Shown: positions 1 through 39,470 of the stretch, one piece after another | Numbering within the stretch: the first letter of the stretch is position 1 | Layout: every line of letters begins with the position of its first letter | Virus record (IMG/VR): IMGVR_UViG_3300020050_009224 | Span: 1 to 64,000 of that record | Strand: one strand, 5' to 3' | From: a virus | Lineage: Duplodnaviria > Caudoviricetes | Length of the DNA: 64,000 bases | Notes under the pieces: generated by a model | What the model was told of the DNA's origin: nothing | The model's input: the letters and a program-made list of their open reading frames with translations, nothing else | Databases searched by the model: none | Made by a program: the position numbers and the translations under genes

Positions 1-3000
1 GAAAAGAAAACTAGAACTAAAGCTAAAAAAGAAACTAAGGTTGCTCCTACTAAAAAACCTAAAGAAAATTTTAAAGAAGCTATAGAAAGAATAAACAAGG
101 AAAGGGAGTTTAACAGTAGTTTTTTTATTGCTTTTTTCATTTTTCTTAGTTTCTTTTTTTATTTTTTCAATTTTTGGATTATTAAGATAAAGCATATTAA
201 GCATGAGTCTTAAATTTTCAAATGCTTCATTTATAATTTGATTATCTTTATAATCATTTCTAAGTAAGTTATCTACTTTGTCAAGGCTATTAAATAACCA
301 AAGCTCTAGTTTATACTTTTGAAATTCATCTAATGGTAATTCACTGTATAAAAAATCAATTAAGCTTGAAATTTCATCAGTTAAATTTTCATTGTAAATA
401 GTATTAAGAAGATTAAGTTCGTCAACTGCTAATACAGTAGCATCATCTATCTCTTCAACCAATGTTTCTGTTTGTTTATATTCTAGTTTATTTCTAGCAA
501 TTTCTACTGCCAGTATTAATTTTTCATTAGTAATTTGTTGATCAGGATTTTCATAAGATTGCAAAGCTACAATATTACCTAACTGATCAGTTATAATTTC
601 ATAAGGTACTTCATTTACAGTTACAGATTCTTCACTGATAGAATCTATTTTATATTTCATGTTAAGTAACTCAGATGGAGTAGCAGAATAAAGTTCATAT
701 TCTACGCCATATTCTACATCAGATACAATAGGATCTTCTGTTTCTTCTATTTCTAACTCAATTTGTAAATCTTCAATATTTCCTATTTCATAAATAGTCA
801 AAGGAGTTTCAATAGTTACAATTCCTCCTTGAGAAATACCTAAAATACCAGTTCTATTTTTAAGAGTAATTTCTTTTCCTACAAAATCATAAATAGTCAA
901 AGGAGGCTTAGGTTGTTTAACTTCAGGTAAAATTCCTAAAGCATCCATAACATCTGGAGCCATGCCTTCTATAACTTCAGGTACAACTATTGAGGGAATA
1001 ATTGAGGGTACAACTGAGGGAATAACTTCTTCTTTTATAACAGGTACAAAAGTTAATTCCTTATTATCTATAAATTGTAAAGTAGGATTTAATCTAGGAG
1101 CTTCATTTAAATATCTATCAAAATCTAATTCTCCAGACTGATCCATAGGAATAGGATAACTTCTAATTGCAAACTTAGACTCATTAGGATCTGCAATCCA
1201 CATTTTATAATGAGTATAAGTATCAAAAACTAAACTACCATTTTTAACATCTAGTTTAGTATATGTAGAATTCTCAGCATTTAAAGTTTTCTTATCTATA
1301 TTGTATTCTTTAGTTGCAAGAAAATCTTTTAGACCTTGTACATCTCCAGACAATAATTGTTCAGAGGTAATAAATTTGTTAGTACCATAGTTAACAGTAA
1401 ATCCAGATTTAGTTTGAAACAGATAAAATCTATAGTTACTTGGCTTACCTTCTCTTGAAAAAGTATTAATATAAGTCTTAATATGATCTTCAATCATTTT
1501 AAACTTATCAGGATTCTTAGCTGCAAATTTTAATAATTCTACAGTCCTAGTAATATCTTTTTCAGTTAAAGTAGTTTTTCTTAAAGCAGTTGGAACTCCA
1601 TTAACAATTACATAAGGTAACCCAGCATAAACTTTAAATGTAGTACCATTAATAACTGTGTCTACAACTTTAGCATTACCTTCACCTATGTAAGTTTCAA
1701 TGAAAATATTAAGCAGGTCAGAATTTTTTTCTAACTCTTTATATTCTACTTCAGTTAAAACACCGCCTACAATTCCTACAGGCTGCATTTTTAAATTACC
1801 ATTTCTGGCACCTGGATTTAATCCATTTATATTTAACTGAGTTTTATTTTTTTTAACTCCTTCTAACCATTTACCATATTCCTCTGCACCTCTTTTTAGA
1901 GTGTTTTCTATAACCTCTTCTGCTTCTTCGGGAGTAAGTCCTTCTTCTATAAGAGCTTCTTCTAAATGGCTAGTTGCAAATCTTATTTCACCTAATCTAG
2001 GAGAATCTGGGTTAGTATATTTATATTCAGGTAAACTTAAAGAAGTACTAATAGGATTATTACTAGGATCTACTACCAGTTCTCCATTCTTTTTAAATAC
2101 TATTACTCTAACATTAGATTCAGCTTCTTGTAATAATGCAGCATTATCTCCAATTTCAGCTACAGTCATGAATCCACCTTTACCTTCATTCAAACTCTGA
2201 ATCCAGAATCCTAGCTTATCTCTAAGTTCAGGTAACACAGTACCTACAGACTGAGTAATAAATGTAAATTCAGATAAGTTTTTATTAGGTAAAAACCATT
2301 TGTACCAATGATATTCTGGACTATTAGGAGTTACAGAAGTTTGGTTACCTGTAGTTCTAATAAAAGTAGTCCAATCTTTATACTTAGTTTGATCAAAATT
2401 ATCATCGAACTTTATCTGACCTGCTATAATTTCTTCTGATATTTCTTCTAAAGGGCCTTGTGGATTTTCAAAATTAATCTCAGCTTGCTTTTCATTGTCT
2501 AAAATAATATCTTCAGCAGCAGCCTCTAATGCATCAATAGCCAGTCTTTCTTTTTTATAGTTTTGAATAAAAGGGAAATTATTAGTTTCAAAATCTTTAC
2601 TCAAACTATAATCTTCCTGATCTAAAGTTCTTTGATTAAATTTAGAAGGATCATTAAATGCAGAGCTAATAGCTTTTGCTAAAAATCTTCTATCTGAATT
2701 AAGTTTAGCTAAATCTGTAATATCTGTTAAAAGTTCTTTAGTAGTTAAACCGTCTTTAAGTTCTAATACATCATTAATAGTTTTAGATTTAAGAATATCA
2801 GTTAAAGTTTCAACAGCTTTAGCTCTAACTTTAGGATCATTAGAACTAAGATCATTTACAGCATCCATCAGACTTACTTCTGGATCTAATCTTTCTTTGA
2901 TGCTTTCTACTTTATCTTTTAATGCAGCTTCTAATGTAGTTTTATTAGATTTAACTGGAGTGTCATCTACTCTAATACCAAAGTTTTTATTACTTATAGA

Positions 3001-5046
3001 CTCTGTAATATTTTTAGTGAGCTTTGTATTAAGATCAGTAATTCTTTTTTCAGCCTTATGCTGACTAAACATTAAACTTACTAAATCTAATTGAGCATTG
3101 TTATTAAGTTTGCCACCAGTTATTTTATTAACCTTGTCATAATACTCTGCTGCTTTATCTATATCTTTTAAAAGAGAATCAATTTTCTCTTTATGCTCAT
3201 TAACTAATTGCTCAGGAGACTTAGCTTCACTAGTATCTATTTTATCAGATTTACCTGTACTAAGATCTGTAATATGAAGAGCATGGGCTTCTTTAATTTG
3301 CTCAGCAGACATTGAAGAACTACTTTCCATAAATTCTTTAAAGTCTTCTAATCTGCCAGTTTTAATAAATCCAAAAGCCAAATTAGCTAAGTCCTGACTT
3401 TCTTTGTTTTTAAACTCATAAAAATTACCAGTAGCAATGTCCTTAGCCATATCTGTTTGCAAGGACATACTTCTAACAATAGTTTCTCTTAGAATTTTAA
3501 TTTGTTCAGAGTCTTGATCTTCTACAGGCTTACCCATAGCAGCTCTAAGGCTCTCCATATCTTTACCTATCCTCTCATTTAAAGCTTTTCTGCTTTTAAT
3601 AGCTGTGTCTTTAAGATCATTTAATTCACTAGCCATACCCTGATTTCTGGCAGCTTCTATCTTCTGTTCAGATATATTCTTAGCTATGTTGGAACCTGGA
3701 ATAAGAGTTTTAAGACCTTTAACTTCTTGACCCTTAGAGTTTTTATATGAACTACCTGCTGGCATCATACCTCCAATTAAAGCTCCACTAACCATATTCT
3801 CCCAACCCTCTTTAGTATTAAGTTGGCCTAGTCCATAAAGGACAGAGTTCATATACTCATTAAAAGAACCTTCTGCTTCTGGATCTTGTGCTCTTTTAGA
3901 CTGATAATGTTTTTCAGTTTCACTTATAGCAAACTGTGAGCCTTCTTCTAAAGCTTCAGTTCCACTTAATTTAGCAATAGCGGTAGGTAATCCTAAAAAT
4001 TTATTATAAGGATCTGCTGCATATTTCTCACCTTCTTTAAATATTTTATAACCTAAGTTAGATTCAGCAAAAGGCTTACTAAATGCTTTACCAAATTGTA
4101 TAGCATTAGACATAGTAAGAATAGCCATATTAGCTCCAAATACTGTATTTTTAGTATTCTGTGTAATATTATCCTGTTCTTCTTTAGTTAAGCCATCCCA
4201 AACTCCTTGAGCTTTGAGATTATCTATAACTTGTTTTTCAGCATCAAAGGCTTCCATTCTAGCTTCACCTATTGACGATAAAGCTGATGTAACACCTTGG
4301 TTAATAGTATTACCCCACTGTCTGACTTTAGCTCCTTTTAAAGCTTTGTCTACGACTTGTTCTACAGTCTGTCCAGCTTTAAGAGCTTCAGATATTTCTA
4401 AACCACTTCTTTTAAGAGTATTTCTTAAGTAAGATTTAGCAACGGCTTTACCTCCAGCCTTTAAGGCAGATCCAAATCCTAGACCTGTAGCTATAGCTCC
4501 TACTGCATATCCAGCATTAGAGAAAATTGTATCTCCCCAAAAATTACCTATACCTTCTGCACTAAAAGCATTACTAAGTACAGAGCCTTCTTCATAAGCT
4601 TTAGTTCTATAAACTTCTAAACCTTGCCTAGTTTCATCAGCCCATTCTTGAACAGCTCTGGAAAATGGATTATCTATAAACTCTTCTAGATTTCCTTCAA
4701 ATCCAGTTTTTTCTCCACCCATATTTGCAAGACCAGTAAATAGTCCTATAGTTCCATCTAAAGCTGTAGAAGTGGCATTAACTGCAAATTTACCAAAGGA
4801 TCTTCCTAACTTTTCACCAGTGCCTTGGTTAAGGGCTCTAATTTCATTAAAATCAGAATTTAAAGGAGTTGAAGTAGGTGAGTCTATATAATCTTTATAG
4901 TCATCTACAAAACCTGGAAATCTTTTATACACAGGTTCAAAGTAACCTTGGCCAGATTCATTAAAATTCTGTCTTAATGGTTCTAAGGGAGATAATCCAT
5001 CTAACTGTGAAGTTGAAGCTACAAACTTACCGTTTACTCTAGGCAT
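1..5046 (-). CDS. Giant virion cargo/ejection protein (crAss-like), partial; runs off the left edge; last ~35 codons suspect (see junction finding)
   Basis: ATG at 5046 (MPRVNGKFVASTSQLDGLSPLEP...). Absence from the ORF track is consistent with no in-frame stop before base 1. N-terminal Gly/Ala-rich hydrophobic segments (NFWGDTIFSNAGYAVGAIATGLGFG...TEALEEGSQ) resemble crAss-like cargo proteins. Follows two other cargo genes; TATATTTG box ~26 nt upstream. Confidence 0.8.
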   Translation of the reverse strand, partial: MPRVNGKFVASTSQLDGLSPLEPLRQNFNESGQGYFEPVYKRFPGFVDDYKDYIDSPTSTPLNSDFNEIRALNQGTGEKLGRSFGKFAVNATSTALDGTIGLFTGLANMGGEKTGFEGNLEEFIDNPFSRAVQEWADETRQGLEVYRTKAYEEGSVLSNAFSAEGIGNFWGDTIFSNAGYAVGAIATGLGFGSALKAGGKAVAKSYLRNTLKRSGLEISEALKAGQTVEQVVDKALKGAKVRQWGNTINQGVTSALSSIGEARMEAFDAEKQVIDNLKAQGVWDGLTKEEQDNITQNTKNTVFGANMAILTMSNAIQFGKAFSKPFAESNLGYKIFKEGEKYAADPYNKFLGLPTAIAKLSGTEALEEGSQFAISETEKHYQSKRAQDPEAEGSFNEYMNSVLYGLGQLNTKEGWENMVSGALIGGMMPAGSSYKNSKGQEVKGLKTLIPGSNIAKNISEQKIEAARNQGMASELNDLKDTAIKSRKALNERIGKDMESLRAAMGKPVEDQDSEQIKILRETIVRSMSLQTDMAKDIATGNFYEFKNKESQDLANLAFGFIKTGRLEDFKEFMESSSSMSAEQIKEAHALHITDLSTGKSDKIDTSEAKSPEQLVNEHKEKIDSLLKDIDKAAEYYDKVNKITGGKLNNNAQLDLVSLMFSQHKAEKRITDLNTKLTKNITESISNKNFGIRVDDTPVKSNKTTLEAALKDKVESIKERLDPEVSLMDAVNDLSSNDPKVRAKAVETLTDILKSKTINDVLELKDGLTTKELLTDITDLAKLNSDRRFLAKAISSAFNDPSKFNQRTLDQEDYSLSKDFETNNFPFIQNYKKERLAIDALEAAAEDIILDNEKQAEINFENPQGPLEEISEEIIAGQIKFDDNFDQTKYKDWTTFIRTTGNQTSVTPNSPEYHWYKWFLPNKNLSEFTFITQSVGTVLPELRDKLGFWIQSLNEGKGGFMTVAEIGDNAALLQEAESNVRVIVFKKNGELVVDPSNNPISTSLSLPEYKYTNPDSPRLGEIRFATSHLEEALIEEGLTPEEAEEVIENTLKRGAEEYGKWLEGVKKNKTQLNINGLNPGARNGNLKMQPVGIVGGVLTEVEYKELEKNSDLLNIFIETYIGEGNAKVVDTVINGTTFKVYAGLPYVIVNGVPTALRKTTLTEKDITRTVELLKFAAKNPDKFKMIEDHIKTYINTFSREGKPSNYRFYLFQTKSGFTVNYGTNKFITSEQLLSGDVQGLKDFLATKEYNIDKKTLNAENSTYTKLDVKNGSLVFDTYTHYKMWIADPNESKFAIRSYPIPMDQSGELDFDRYLNEAPRLNPTLQFIDNKELTFVPVIKEEVIPSVVPSIIPSIVVPEVIEGMAPDVMDALGILPEVKQPKPPLTIYDFVGKEITLKNRTGILGISQGGIVTIETPLTIYEIGNIEDLQIELEIEETEDPIVSDVEYGVEYELYSATPSELLNMKYKIDSISEESVTVNEVPYEIITDQLGNIVALQSYENPDQQITNEKLILAVEIARNKLEYKQTETLVEEIDDATVLAVDELNLLNTIYNENLTDEISSLIDFLYSELPLDEFQKYKLELWLFNSLDKVDNLLRNDYKDNQIINEAFENLRLMLNMLYLNNPKIEKIKKETKKNEKSNKKTTVKLPFLVYSFYSFFKIFFRFFSRSNLSFFFSFSSSFLF

Positions 5047-5071
5047 CTGTTATTATTTAATATTGAATCTA

Positions 5072-5079
5072 CAAATATA
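5072..5079 (-). promoter_or_regulatory. Bacteroidota sigma70 -7 element TATATTTG
   Basis: Matches TAnnTTTG. TTG (-33-like) at 5100-5102, ~20 nt upstream. Lies just upstream of ATG 5046. Confidence 0.7.
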
Positions 5080-5084
5080 GTGAA

Positions 5085-5579
5085 TTAAAGGTTATTATTC
5101 AACCTGTTTAAATAATCTATTACTTTCATATTTTTAGGAGGTTTGCCATTAGTTCTTCTGTAAATATCAGCATCTACAGCAGCTTGGGCTTTATCATTAT
5201 CTCCAGTAGCCTTTAAAGCATCTAAATAAATTTTAGCTCCACCTGATCCTAAAAAGTGAATAAGGCCCATAAACATCTCTGTGGAACCTTGACCACCATA
5301 AGCTTTTTTATATTCTTCAGCTTTAGGAATAACAACAGTTTCCAAGTTATGTTTATGGTATTTTTCTTGAGCTTCTGGATTATCTATAAAAGATTGAGGA
5401 GAATCTACTCCAGTAATTTGTTTAATCTTATTACCGTGATGAGACCACATATACTGGTATTTACCTAAAGCATTAGACTCCTTATTCCAAGATTTATAAT
5501 TACCTTCAGTTAAAGCTAAAGCTGTATTGTAGCCTTTTATCTTATCCCCAGAGGATTGGCTTGTCCTTGAGGAGTCTGC
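5085..5579 (-). CDS. Lysozyme-like/lytic transglycosylase domain, probably made only as a -1 frameshift extension of the 5537..8185 protein
   Basis: Frame stays open upstream of the listed ATG (5450): ...YNTALALTEGNYKSWNKESNALGKYQYMWSHH...LIHFLGSGGA. Resembles the E-S/G-x-GNY...N..S.A.GKYQ lysozyme-fold motif. No ATG precedes the putative catalytic Glu. Confidence 0.7.
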   Translation of the reverse strand, partial: ADSSRTSQSSGDKIKGYNTALALTEGNYKSWNKESNALGKYQYMWSHHGNKIKQITGVDSPQSFIDNPEAQEKYHKHNLETVVIPKAEEYKKAYGGQGSTEMFMGLIHFLGSGGAKIYLDALKATGDNDKAQAAVDADIYRRTNGKPPKNMKVIDYLNRLNNNL

Positions 5580-8185
5580 TTTTTTCCTGTACCACTTCCT
5601 CTATACCTATAATCATTAAAGTCTAAATTACTACCAAAGGTATAAGGAGCTTCAGATAAAGTTTCAGGAAGTACATATTTAGATATTTCCATAGTAAGAT
5701 CGGCTAAAGTAACTCCTTCCATATTAGTTTTAAGATATTCATCCATAATATTATCTATAGTATTGGCGTCTAAAGTTTCCCCATATTTTGTTTTAGTGCC
5801 ATTACTTTTAACATTAGCCATTATTATAGAATTAACAAAATTATCTAATAACTTATTATCATGTGGATTACCTTGTTCACCAAGTTTAAGTTCAGCTGTG
5901 CCTATGCTCGAATTACTATAATCTGAAATAGTAATTGGTTTACCATCAGTTTCTATTCTTATACCATTTCTCACAATACCATTTCCTACGTCAGCTTTAA
6001 CCTGCCTACCTTTAATTTCTTTAGCATTAGCAATATTAGAATCTGCTTCACTTCCATAAAGCCTGTCTAAAACTGGAGTATCTTTTTCAATTTCATCTTT
6101 GTAGTTTTTCTTAGGATTGTTAAAACTAGGTGTAAAGATTTGTTGGAGAATTGATTTAGGCATACCTTGTAATTCAGTACCATGTTGGAATCCGCCACTT
6201 CCACTTTCTGTAATCTTGGTATAACCATTTAAAGTTTCAAGTAAAGCTAATCCTCCATTACCTGTAGTTGGAGTTAAGATATTTTGTCTAAGATTTTCTT
6301 TATCTACTTTAAGTCTTAGAAGTTGTTTCTCTCCTACCTCTCCTTCTTTATTAGGAACTAATCCAAAATCATCTTCGTATCCTACATTCTCATCTCCAAT
6401 ACTCCCATCTTTCTTTCTATCCAAAGTATAAACTAAATATAATCCATCACCTTGAGTTTGGAAAGTAGCAGTAGCTTTTTCTTTGTCTGTAAGATCTCCT
6501 AAAGCACTTTTAAGATGTTCTCTTTTAGTTTCAGGACTATCCCATTTATAACCTTTATTTACATGGCCATTAGCAATTTGTTGAAGATCGGAATTACCTA
6601 AATCAAAAGTAGTTAAAGCATTGTCAGTTGCAATTTTAGCAATTTGCTTGTAACCTTCATCTGGCATATTAGTATAAGAATACTGACTAACTTCTTGAGC
6701 TATATCAGAACTTGCAAAGTTTTTAATAGCTTTATCTTTAGCAGTTTCTACAGCAGCTTTTTTATCTAAGGAAGCTGCATAGTTTTTATATACTTCTTCT
6801 TTAGGTGGATTTTTAAAAGTTTGTCCATTTTGAGTATAGTCCCAATTAGAAGTATCTCCAATTGCATAGTCTACAATTTTTCTGAGTTTTCCTATATAAG
6901 AAGAAGAATTAGGATCAGCTTTGGCTAATTCTCCATTTCTAAGTAAGTTAGTTAATGTAGCAGCATCGGGAATATCAATGCCTTCAAATGTAGCTCCTTC
7001 TTGTAATCCAGTTATAGATTTATCTACAAAATCTAATAAATTTTGATCTGCTTTATTTTCAACATAGATTCTCTCTATTTCTTTCTTACCTTCAGATGAA
7101 TTATGAAAATCTTCAACAGTCTGATCATAAGAAGCCATAGCTACATATCTAGCATTTAAGTCTTTTTCAATTATAGCTTTTTTATTTGGATCAGGCTCAT
7201 TAGCTAACTTATTTTCTAAAGTTGCAATCTCTTGTTTAGCAGCTTGAGGATTACTATAATCAAATAAAGATTCAGAAAAATAACCTACTCCAGATTTAGT
7301 AGCTTGAATCAAAGCAGGTGGTTGTTCTACTTTACCACCACTACCTGACCCACTTCCATTATTTAAAGCAGAAGCTCTGTAAGTTTTACTTTCATCTGTA
7401 TTATTAATATTAAATAGTCTACCTCTTTCAAAAAAGTCAGTTACATAAGAATTTAATCCTTTTCCAGACTTGTTATAAAAATTAGAAGCTGTAGTAGCTT
7501 TAGTATTATATAAATCATTGGATACTGCTGTTAGTGTAGGATAATTTCCATTTGCAGATAAGTCTCTAATAGATTGTTTTTTAGTACCATCCCAAAAGAA
7601 TATTTCTCCTGTTTCAGTAGGAGGTAACATTTGTAATCCAGATAGTCTAGTTCTTTCTTCTGGAGTCATATGTAACCACATAGCATCTTCCTCTTTCCAA
7701 TCAGGGGCTTTAGCTGTATTAGCATAGTACTGATCTATTTGCGAAGGAGTTAAAGTTTTAAAATCTACAGCTATGGGACTACCATCTGGATTTTTATAAC
7801 CCATATAAGAACCTTGATTTTCTAATTCCCAAAGAGGCATTGTCTTAGATCTTTCAGCATCTCTAGCTCCAGATAAAACTCTGTTGTCTTGTTGATATTG
7901 AGCAGCAATTTTACTTAAATTTCTTTGAGCTTCATTAACATCTTTATTAAGCATTAACTGTTTTTGTACATCTAGAATTCTTTGAGTATAATCAGAGTTA
8001 ACTTCTTTAATTAATCCTGGAGTTAAAAATCCTTCTTGTGTAGGAAGATCAGCCATGAGTTTTCCCATAGCAGCTTGAGAAGCTTGATATTCAGCTTCTT
8101 TCTTAGCAGCTAAATCTCCAAACTTTTCTAACATATTAAAATTCCTAGGTGTATATTCACTAGGTGTACTATAAGGATTAGCCAT
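5537..8185 (-). CDS. Virion cargo/ejection protein
   Basis: 882 aa; sits between cargo protein 1 and the giant cargo gene; N-terminus (MANPYSTPSEYTPRNF, then helical) resembles crAss-like cargo proteins. Confidence 0.65.
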   Translation of the reverse strand: MANPYSTPSEYTPRNFNMLEKFGDLAAKKEAEYQASQAAMGKLMADLPTQEGFLTPGLIKEVNSDYTQRILDVQKQLMLNKDVNEAQRNLSKIAAQYQQDNRVLSGARDAERSKTMPLWELENQGSYMGYKNPDGSPIAVDFKTLTPSQIDQYYANTAKAPDWKEEDAMWLHMTPEERTRLSGLQMLPPTETGEIFFWDGTKKQSIRDLSANGNYPTLTAVSNDLYNTKATTASNFYNKSGKGLNSYVTDFFERGRLFNINNTDESKTYRASALNNGSGSGSGGKVEQPPALIQATKSGVGYFSESLFDYSNPQAAKQEIATLENKLANEPDPNKKAIIEKDLNARYVAMASYDQTVEDFHNSSEGKKEIERIYVENKADQNLLDFVDKSITGLQEGATFEGIDIPDAATLTNLLRNGELAKADPNSSSYIGKLRKIVDYAIGDTSNWDYTQNGQTFKNPPKEEVYKNYAASLDKKAAVETAKDKAIKNFASSDIAQEVSQYSYTNMPDEGYKQIAKIATDNALTTFDLGNSDLQQIANGHVNKGYKWDSPETKREHLKSALGDLTDKEKATATFQTQGDGLYLVYTLDRKKDGSIGDENVGYEDDFGLVPNKEGEVGEKQLLRLKVDKENLRQNILTPTTGNGGLALLETLNGYTKITESGSGGFQHGTELQGMPKSILQQIFTPSFNNPKKNYKDEIEKDTPVLDRLYGSEADSNIANAKEIKGRQVKADVGNGIVRNGIRIETDGKPITISDYSNSSIGTAELKLGEQGNPHDNKLLDNFVNSIIMANVKSNGTKTKYGETLDANTIDNIMDEYLKTNMEGVTLADLTMEISKYVLPETLSEAPYTFGSNLDFNDYRYRGSGTGKKQTPQGQANPLGIR
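5545..5585 (-). promoter_or_regulatory. -1 programmed ribosomal frameshift signal
   Basis: In-frame A_AAA_AAG (5585-5579), 5-nt spacer, then hairpin UCCUCA-AGGA[CAAGCCAA]UCCU-C-UGGGGA (5573-5545). Confidence 0.75.
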
Positions 8186-39383: not shown

Positions 39384-39396
39384 ATTTTAATTTTAG

Positions 39397-39470
<74 letters not shown>

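Follow-up and report, generated by a model that had tools for sequence, protein, structure and literature searches.

A Putative −1 Frameshift Cassette Predicted to Append a Lytic-Transglycosylase Domain to a Cargo-Position Protein in crAss-like Phages

Introduction

In Escherichia coli dnaX (tau/gamma), the core event of −1 ribosomal frameshifting is the slip of tRNA-Lys on A_AAG. The G/GT genes of phage lambda rely on a −1 shift near the end of a late gene, which yields a minor, C-terminally extended product, and this arrangement is conserved by position, not by sequence, across divergent phages. Retroviral Gag-Pol and the OrfAB proteins of IS3-family elements are made when a −1 shift at a heptamer with a 3' structure joins an enzyme to the upstream protein at a fixed sub-stoichiometric ratio. 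The lytic-transglycosylase domain of phage T7 gp16, on the other hand, is N-terminal and in frame. Here we analyze a stretch of DNA from a crAss-like phage (called the window below; the initial 64 kb, or 64,000 nucleotides (nt), of the 98,184-bp IMG/VR record IMGVR_UViG_3300020050_009224, which is rated 100% complete). The element under study lies at the 3' end of a gene in the position of a virion cargo protein and consists of a slippery heptamer, a putative stem-loop and a long open −1 frame that is predicted to encode a lytic transglycosylase. Comparative sequence analysis makes it very probable that a ribosomal −1 slip, shared by this phage with at least ten related lineages, adds a wall-cutting enzyme domain to a fraction of the copies of the upstream protein.

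Crassviruses are among the most abundant phages; what their cargo proteins do and how the phages cross the cell wall are questions that the present prediction addresses. In PhicrAss001 the gene order is muzzle (gp44), cargo protein 1 (gp45), cargo protein 2 (gp46) and the giant, RNA polymerase-associated gp47 (PMC10172136). The same structural atlas likens the cargo proteins gp45 and gp46 to T7, and it mentions neither muralytic activity nor recoding or frameshifting (PMC10172136). A full-text literature search of incomplete coverage turned up no account of a frameshift in any crassvirus cargo gene. The element described here reads as a canonical −1 frameshift signal in a clade-wide gene context for which we have found no precedent.

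Results

Slip Site and the Two Reading Frames

The gene in question, here called the carrier gene, encodes 882 amino acids in the 0 frame, and all coordinates are collected in Table 1. Its 3' end reads GGT ACA GGA AAA AAG CAG ACT CCT CAA GGA CAA GCC AAT CCT CTG GGG ATA AGA TAA, so that 13 codons stand between the AAG of the heptamer A_AAA_AAG and the TAA stop. The −1 frame is open from position 5600 down to its stop at 5087-5085, which amounts to 171 codons from stop to stop and 164 after the slip. Two products are predicted, one of 882 and one of 869 + 164 = 1033 amino acids, the frames of the longer one being joined between GTGKK and ADSSR. The layout put forward in the original prediction, which was made from the letters alone, could be read again at exactly the same positions: the heptamer, the 13 codons to the stop, the 5-nt spacer, the 10-bp hairpin and the 164-codon −1 frame. 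The same is true of the TAG that closes the −1 frame upstream and of the placement of a glutamate codon ahead of the first ATG.

How exceptional is such a site? We surveyed the open reading frames (ORFs) of at least 150 amino acids in the window with a set of 22 slippery patterns and found 63 in-frame slippery heptamers. This is the sole one that leads into a long −1 frame (164 codons; the runner-up has 27). Reassignment of a stop codon was considered and dropped: TAA ends the 0 frame, translation table 11 leaves the late genes open throughout, and the only transfer RNA (tRNA) present in the window is a tRNA-Met (CAT; 39396-39470, minus strand), with no suppressor tRNA.

Conservation of the Cassette in Related Lineages

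Searches with the extension recovered ten relatives from independent metagenomes and IMG/VR contigs, which together with the window make 11 lineages (the window, L001, L002/L003, L007, L008/L009, L011, L013, L014, L015, L016/L017 and L024). The crAss context is confirmed by a muzzle gene on the contig for five of the ten: the L001 contig has called muzzle and cargo-1 genes, and on the L013-L016 contigs the muzzle gene lies a few kb upstream. All 11 lineages have a common layout, with a carrier ORF of approximately 720-880 amino acids where complete (the contigs of two relatives are cut at the carrier 5' end) and the enzyme ORF in the −1 frame. In every one of them a slippery heptamer lies in frame at the aligned position, 13-15 codons before the carrier stop. 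Three lineages have A_AAA_AAG, seven G_GGA_AAG and one G_GGA_AAA; the Lys codon is aligned, and the heptamer therefore changes only between recognized slippery types. A spacer of 4-7 nt and a stem-loop of 8-11 bp (−11 to −24 kcal/mol) follow in all lineages. The conservation of heptamer and hairpin, on which the original prediction had placed weight, thus extends to ten further lineages, with switching of heptamer type and compensatory changes in the stem.

The carrier protein itself is much less constant. Identity to the window carrier is 49% in L002 and 32% in L001, and BLAST detects no similarity between carriers of different lineage groups. At the nucleotide level, identity of the window to L001 and L002 is approximately 50% upstream of the heptamer versus 78-83% from the heptamer onward, and a 25-nt block (the GCCAATCCTCTGGGGATAAGATAAG region) is identical in the window and L001. 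In these alignments the putative frameshift cassette is conserved while the carrier protein diverges.

Within IMG/VR, scans with the single extension protein and with the close alignment A1 returned nothing, and the relatives there came from scans with alignments A3 and A7; a metagenome scan yielded no contigs beyond those already found. Against phage records, tblastn of the extension gave only one match (a Leptolyngbya phage, 36.8%) and megablast of window positions 4500-6500 gave nothing.

Two features vary among the lineages. Shine-Dalgarno-like purine motifs (GAGGAAG, AAGGAGG, AGGAGGAG) stand 7-11 nt upstream of the heptamer in some of them (window 5586-5610, minus strand; L007:1400-1429; L015:2990-3015); elsewhere they are absent, and they are not conserved. 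The −1-frame ORF of L013 (L013:2986-4986) runs for 666 amino acids from the heptamer, unlike the approximately 170-200 seen elsewhere. Beyond the enzyme domain it continues for approximately 470 residues that match nothing in Pfam, and the 575-amino-acid protein P0006 looks similar.

Stem-Loop Downstream of the Heptamer

In the window the putative stem comprises 10 bp, one of them G-U, and is interrupted by a single bulged base. The 45 nt on the 3' side of the heptamer fold with a minimum free energy of −11.2 kcal/mol, which places them among the most stable 2% of windows on the same strand (3000 random 45-nt windows; mean −4.7, standard deviation 2.8). The codons of the 3' arm are rare in this genome (CTG, 2.6% of Leu; GGG, 4.1% of Gly), whose guanine-plus-cytosine content is 30%.

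Comparison among lineages is more telling. The two arms of the stem are CCCCAGACC/GGUCUGGGG in L011 and L014, CCUCAAACC/GGUUUGGGG in L016, CGCCUCAACC/GGUUGGGGCG in L024, GCCUCAGGU/ACCUGGGGC in L013 and CCUCAGAG/CUCUGGGG in L001. Between L011 and L016, CAG/CUG is replaced by CAA/UUG, a change that keeps the pair and is synonymous in both arms (Gln and Leu). The closing pair also varies by lineage, being U-A, G-C or A-U. In the family alignment 93.7% of cells are paired and double (compensatory) changes occur at three pairs; none of 500 shuffles reaches the observed values, and 3' partners slid out of register pair at no more than 68%. The alignment was fitted to a covariance model and hence leans towards structure, but the same stems form when each sequence is folded without constraint. 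Built from four sequences, the covariance model picked up five additional sites; L013 escaped it at E-values up to 1, and L024 was not included.

A pseudoknot between AGCC in the loop and a downstream GGCU, noticed by eye in the window, was dropped, its pairing not being conserved in L001 or L002. Rfam gave no match to a frameshift family, only a single row at chance level (E = 3). The 13-15-amino-acid tail that the 0 frame encodes beyond the heptamer (5540-5578 in the window) keeps a PQ...PLG pattern in all lineages, and the arms of the stem encode this tail.

Start Codons and Coding Signature of the −1 Frame

Can the enzyme be translated on its own? In the window, the first ATG, GTG or TTG of the −1 frame is the ATG at 5450 (residue 51), downstream of the predicted catalytic Glu codon. 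The original prediction expected standard annotation to call a truncated ORF of 121 amino acids from this codon, and an identical call is indeed present in a public protein collection (P0001). An ATG, GTG or TTG is absent ahead of the Glu in six of the 11 lineages (the window, L007, L008, L013, L016 and L024), with L024 not having one until residue 110 of 193. For L001, L002, L011 and L014, gene callers start the ORF at TTGs that occupy non-homologous codons, and an ATG in this region occurs only in L015. Directly before the heptamer of L002 and L016, the −1 frame is closed by a TGA; the frame can therefore be entered there only at the heptamer or within the next 40-50 nt. An independent start for the domain in relatives had been named beforehand as one observation that would count against a frameshift; in the aligned sequences there is no conserved start of this kind for the enzyme ORF.

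The 29 codons from the 0-frame stop to the first ATG can be compared with three relatives. The differences fall at codon position 3 in 15 of 19, 10 of 15 and 16 of 19 cases, and the ratios of synonymous to non-synonymous codon changes over the same stretch are 12:3, 8:3 and 14:4. By this signature the start-less 5' part of the extension evolves as coding sequence under purifying selection.

The Extension as a Predicted Lytic-Transglycosylase Domain

An AlphaFold2 model of the extension has a predicted local distance difference test score (pLDDT) of 91.1, and its first helix (residues 17-32) ends at Glu32. A profile of 32 sequences compared with the Protein Data Bank (PDB) matches phiKZ gp144 (3BKH and a second entry) at an E-value of 1.8e-7. 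In this profile alignment, Glu32 of the extension is aligned with Glu115, which we take to be the catalytic glutamate of gp144, and GKYQY is aligned with GWFQF; the corresponding motifs are ES...SSAxG.FQF in gp144 and E[SG]...AxGKYQ in the family. Relatives keep the T/N-E-S/G and GKYQ motifs. A lysozyme fold with its glutamate in LTEG was what the original prediction foresaw, and the modeled fold is that of a lytic transglycosylase with this very residue at the gp144 position.

Structure comparison points the same way. VIA-align gives Z-scores of 10.8 to Cj0843, 9.9 to gp144 (3BKH; root-mean-square deviation 3.6 Å over 140 residues) and 8-9.8 to Slt, MltF, MltE and MltC, with aligned spans of 125-140 residues overall. 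On the scale of this program the caution line is 8 and roughly 13 is advised for helical folds; because the scores exceed 8 and stay below approximately 13, it is the sequence-profile match that carries weight. The top rows of a Foldseek search against the PDB are nearly all lytic transglycosylases or lysozyme-type enzymes, with weak scores (E-values of at least 0.025; template-modeling scores of approximately 0.45) and no match at an E-value of 0.001 or less. Sequence identity to solved lytic transglycosylases is approximately 14-20%. An exhaustive HMMER search collected 346 representative clusters at an E-value of 0.001 or less, in which homology typically begins at residue 31 and includes the Glu. 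Taken as a sequence and structure prediction, the extension is a divergent family within the lysozyme-like lytic-transglycosylase superfamily, and a predicted enzyme. A start at the first ATG would remove helix 1, the Glu and a beta-hairpin; according to the model, the extension forms a complete enzyme domain only if it is entered from upstream.

The same family occurs in frame in other proteins. It is C-terminal in P0098 (985 amino acids), whose residues 443-551 resemble the N-terminal part of the window cargo protein 1, and internal (residues 260-353) in P0145, a protein that resembles the cargo-1 domain region. In P0011 and P0030 (2096 and 2755 amino acids) it is N-terminal and accompanied by His_Phos_1 and ddrB-ParB, and these proteins look polyvalent. 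Pairwise comparison of P0098, P0104 and P0054 with the 882-amino-acid carrier showed no resemblance, and a BLASTP search of the representatives of at least 500 amino acids against the carrier gave no match.

Virion Gene Block and Genome Context

The position of the carrier matches that of PhicrAss001 cargo protein 2: the order is muzzle, cargo protein 1, the 882-amino-acid gene with its extension, and a giant ORF. The window muzzle protein is no more than 29% identical to the muzzles of described crAss-like phages. The giant ORF, which has no Pfam match, occupies the gp47 position; in L001 the corresponding gene is annotated with 4067 amino acids.

A separate Peptidase_M15_4 ORF in the virus is a typical candidate for a stand-alone endolysin, and lysis is probably done by this small protein. 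Searches of the genome for Amidase_2, Amidase_3, Phage_lysozyme, SLT (PF01464) and GH25 gave zero matches. The idea that the extension is the only lysin of the phage was rejected because the Peptidase_M15_4 ORF is present; with such a candidate at hand, the lytic transglycosylase is not needed for lysis.

Table 1. Features of the frameshift locus and of neighboring or related genes in the window (positions in the 64,000-nt stretch)
Feature	Position	Strand	Basis or remark
Slippery heptamer A_AAA_AAG, in-frame GGA AAA AAG	5585-5579	minus	direct sequence reading
Spacer CAGAC, 5 nt	5578-5574	minus	between heptamer and stem
Putative stimulatory stem-loop	5573-5545	minus	UCCUCAAGGA paired with UCCU-C-UGGGGA, 8-nt loop
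TAA stop of the 0-frame 882-amino-acid product	5539-5537	minus	sequence, ORF list
TAG closing the −1 frame upstream of the slip site	5603-5601	minus	sequence
−1-frame extension, 164 codons and stop	5085-5579	minus	open frame from the slip
Predicted lytic-transglycosylase (lysozyme-like) domain	5088-5552	minus	residues 17-171 of the −1 ORF
Predicted catalytic Glu, GAA codon	5507-5505	minus	residue 32 of the −1 ORF, in LTEG; 19 codons upstream of the first ATG
121-amino-acid ATG-started ORF, gene-caller version	5085-5450	minus	truncated; without helix 1, Glu and beta-hairpin
Carrier gene, 0-frame product of 882 amino acids	5537-8185	minus	ORF list; flanked by cargo protein 1 and the giant gene
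Cargo-protein-1 gene, 972 amino acids	8189-11107	minus	crassvirus cargo-protein-1 domain PF25725 (crAss_CARG1)
Muzzle gene, 1291 amino acids	11107-14982	minus	Pfam crassvirus muzzle family PF25731 (crAss_MUZ), E 6e-112
Giant ORF, at least 1682 amino acids, running off the record start	1-5046	minus	ORF list
Peptidase_M15_4 ORF, 126 amino acids	20324-20704	minus	Pfam E 7.6e-10; typical stand-alone endolysin candidate

Discussion

Proposed Mechanism

We hold it highly likely that the 3' end of this cargo-position gene contains a −1 programmed ribosomal frameshift, a tandem slip stimulated by the stem-loop, with a major product of 882 and a minor product of 1033 amino acids. Ribosomes on the carrier gene would reach GGA AAA AAG while impeded by the stem-loop 5 nt downstream. 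A fraction would slip back by one base, with AAA/AAG re-pairing as AAA/AAA, and would then read 164 codons in the −1 frame; most would stop 13 codons later and release the 882-amino-acid protein. In the 1033-amino-acid product of the shifted fraction, the C-terminal 155 residues are expected to fold as a lytic transglycosylase similar to phiKZ gp144. If, like cargo protein 2 of PhicrAss001, the carrier is packaged and ejected, its appended enzyme could open the peptidoglycan locally during genome delivery, much as the N-terminal domain of T7 gp16 does. That the slip is ribosomal and partial is what the conserved geometry suggests; the muralytic activity, the efficiency of shifting and the idea of a set stoichiometry may be regarded as its presumptive consequences.

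We also lean, with less assurance, towards a wider picture. In an environmental clade of Crassvirales, a cassette resembling Gag-Pol would meter a peptidoglycan-cleaving enzyme onto a fixed minority of the packaged cargo copies, which would breach the wall in genome delivery. In other lineages the module would have moved between cargo proteins, standing in frame in a cargo-1-like protein and N-terminally in the polyvalent-looking giants.

Points Against and Rival Explanations

A number of observations weigh against the frameshift reading or against parts of it. It is gene order that suggests a packaged and ejected protein like cargo protein 2; the 882-amino-acid carrier belongs to no family in Pfam or PHROG, and tblastn against 50,697 GenBank phage records gave it no match. 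The carrier groups, when compared by hhalign, are only weakly alike (probability 50%, E-value 1.6e-4, over the N-terminal 200 residues). The extension is matched by neither Pfam SLT (PF01464), other Pfam models (E-values up to 0.1) nor PHROG models. As for the RNA, the whole 96-nt fold of the region is not unusual (z = −0.6), and the window stem is the weakest in the family (an A-C mismatch or bulge, and the −11.2 kcal/mol given above). With a 45-nt fold in the top 2% and an ordinary 96-nt fold, the single-sequence signal of the window is moderate, and it is the comparative signal that is decisive. Even the comparison has a second side, since the two arms encode the conserved PQ...PLG tail and the constraints on peptide and RNA are inseparable; conservation of the stem could in part reflect protein-level or dual-coding constraint on the PQ and LG of the 0 frame. 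Finally, a TTG or ATG precedes the Glu by 2-9 codons in five of the 11 lineages, and some independent initiation is possible in these.

The last point leads to the alternative that the enzyme ORF is a separate gene with a weak or non-canonical start of its own (TTG, ATA or reinitiation at the carrier stop), which makes a free enzyme of approximately 150 amino acids, the heptamer and hairpin being incidental. Besides the five lineages just mentioned, gene callers report stand-alone, TTG-started ORFs of 144-162 amino acids in L001, L002, P0003 and L011; the predicted fold sets in just approximately four residues ahead of the 0-frame stop, and in every lineage the carrier stop is overlapped by an xUA codon. 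However, the six lineages without any candidate start ahead of the Glu, of which L024 lacks one up to residue 110, and the non-homologous positions of the TTGs do not suit a gene with its own start, and such a gene leaves unexplained the in-frame heptamer at a fixed distance, the switching of heptamer type, the fixed spacer and the co-varying stem. We consider a separate gene unlikely. RNA polymerase might also produce the fusion by adding one A in the A-run, so that some of the messages encode it; an extra A in the runs of six (window and L001) or seven (L002) does give the fusion frame. Efficient bacterial transcriptional slippage, however, generally needs runs of approximately nine or more. 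It is implausible for the GGGAAAG lineages, and eight of the 11 lineages use G_GGA_AAG or G_GGA_AAA, with just 3-4 A's; moreover, a conserved stem 5-6 nt downstream has the geometry of a ribosomal stimulator. Slippage of this kind strikes us as very improbable.

Homopolymer runs are error-prone, and in other phages this lytic-transglycosylase family does occur as an in-frame part of large proteins. One could therefore suppose that a one-base assembly error hides a plain in-frame fusion, a way of being wrong that the original prediction had named itself, or that the locus is a recent frameshift pseudogene. Yet three other assemblies, from three Joint Genome Institute (JGI) samples, are 100% identical over 201 nt including the six A's, and ten more lineages keep the two-frame layout, most of them with GGGAAAG and without a long homopolymer. 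The extension shows purifying selection, and a search for longer, in-frame fused relatives found none, which is weak evidence by the tool's own rating. An assembly error in the A-run is very unlikely on these sequences, and artefact or decay as a whole is the least credible of the explanations considered.

Implications

A programmed frameshift at this site predicts two forms of one protein (882 and 1033 amino acids) and one enzyme activity from a conserved 50-nt element. It would also correct an annotation error: in every related lineage examined, the annotated enzyme either starts too late to include its catalytic residue or appears as a small ORF of its own, and calls of just these kinds are present in the public protein collection. 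The heptamer, the 5-nt spacer and a CCYCAR...YUGGGG stem provide a search model with which crAss-like genomes could be corrected.

Comparison with Known Systems

The site itself is most like that of E. coli dnaX, which has the identical heptamer A_AAA_AAG and a stem-loop approximately 5-6 nt downstream. The outcome is different: the dnaX shift leads to near-immediate termination and a shorter product, while the shift proposed here adds an enzyme domain of 164 amino acids. In addition, dnaX uses an upstream Shine-Dalgarno-like stimulator, whereas motifs of this type are present here in some lineages only.

The lambda G/GT frameshift has G_GGA_AAG, the heptamer of seven of the 11 lineages. It and the tail-assembly-chaperone frameshift of long-tailed phages share other traits with the present site as well: a −1 shift in a late gene, a minor extended product (here predicted) and conservation by position. 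G and GT, however, are chaperones of a long tail and are absent from the virion, whereas the present phage is a podovirus in which the carrier has the position of a cargo protein and the extension is a predicted enzyme. A 3' structure is, to our knowledge, not required at the lambda site, whereas the present lineages conserve a co-varying stem-loop.

On the side of the enzyme, the closest solved relatives of the extension are phiKZ gp144 (3BKH/3BKV) and GH23-type enzymes (Slt70, MltE and Cj0843). Unlike gp144, a free endolysin with an N-terminal cell-wall-binding domain, the domain described here would sit on an 869-amino-acid carrier. T7 gp16 likewise has a lytic-transglycosylase domain. This large protein exits the capsid before the DNA does, a course that the carrier may follow too. 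The gp16 domain differs in place from the one described here, which is C-terminal and reached only by recoding; presumably, therefore, only a fraction of the carrier copies have the enzyme. In its logic, the proposed arrangement is nearest to retroviral Gag-Pol and to OrfAB. The proteins and hosts are unrelated, and the likeness is one of analogy only.

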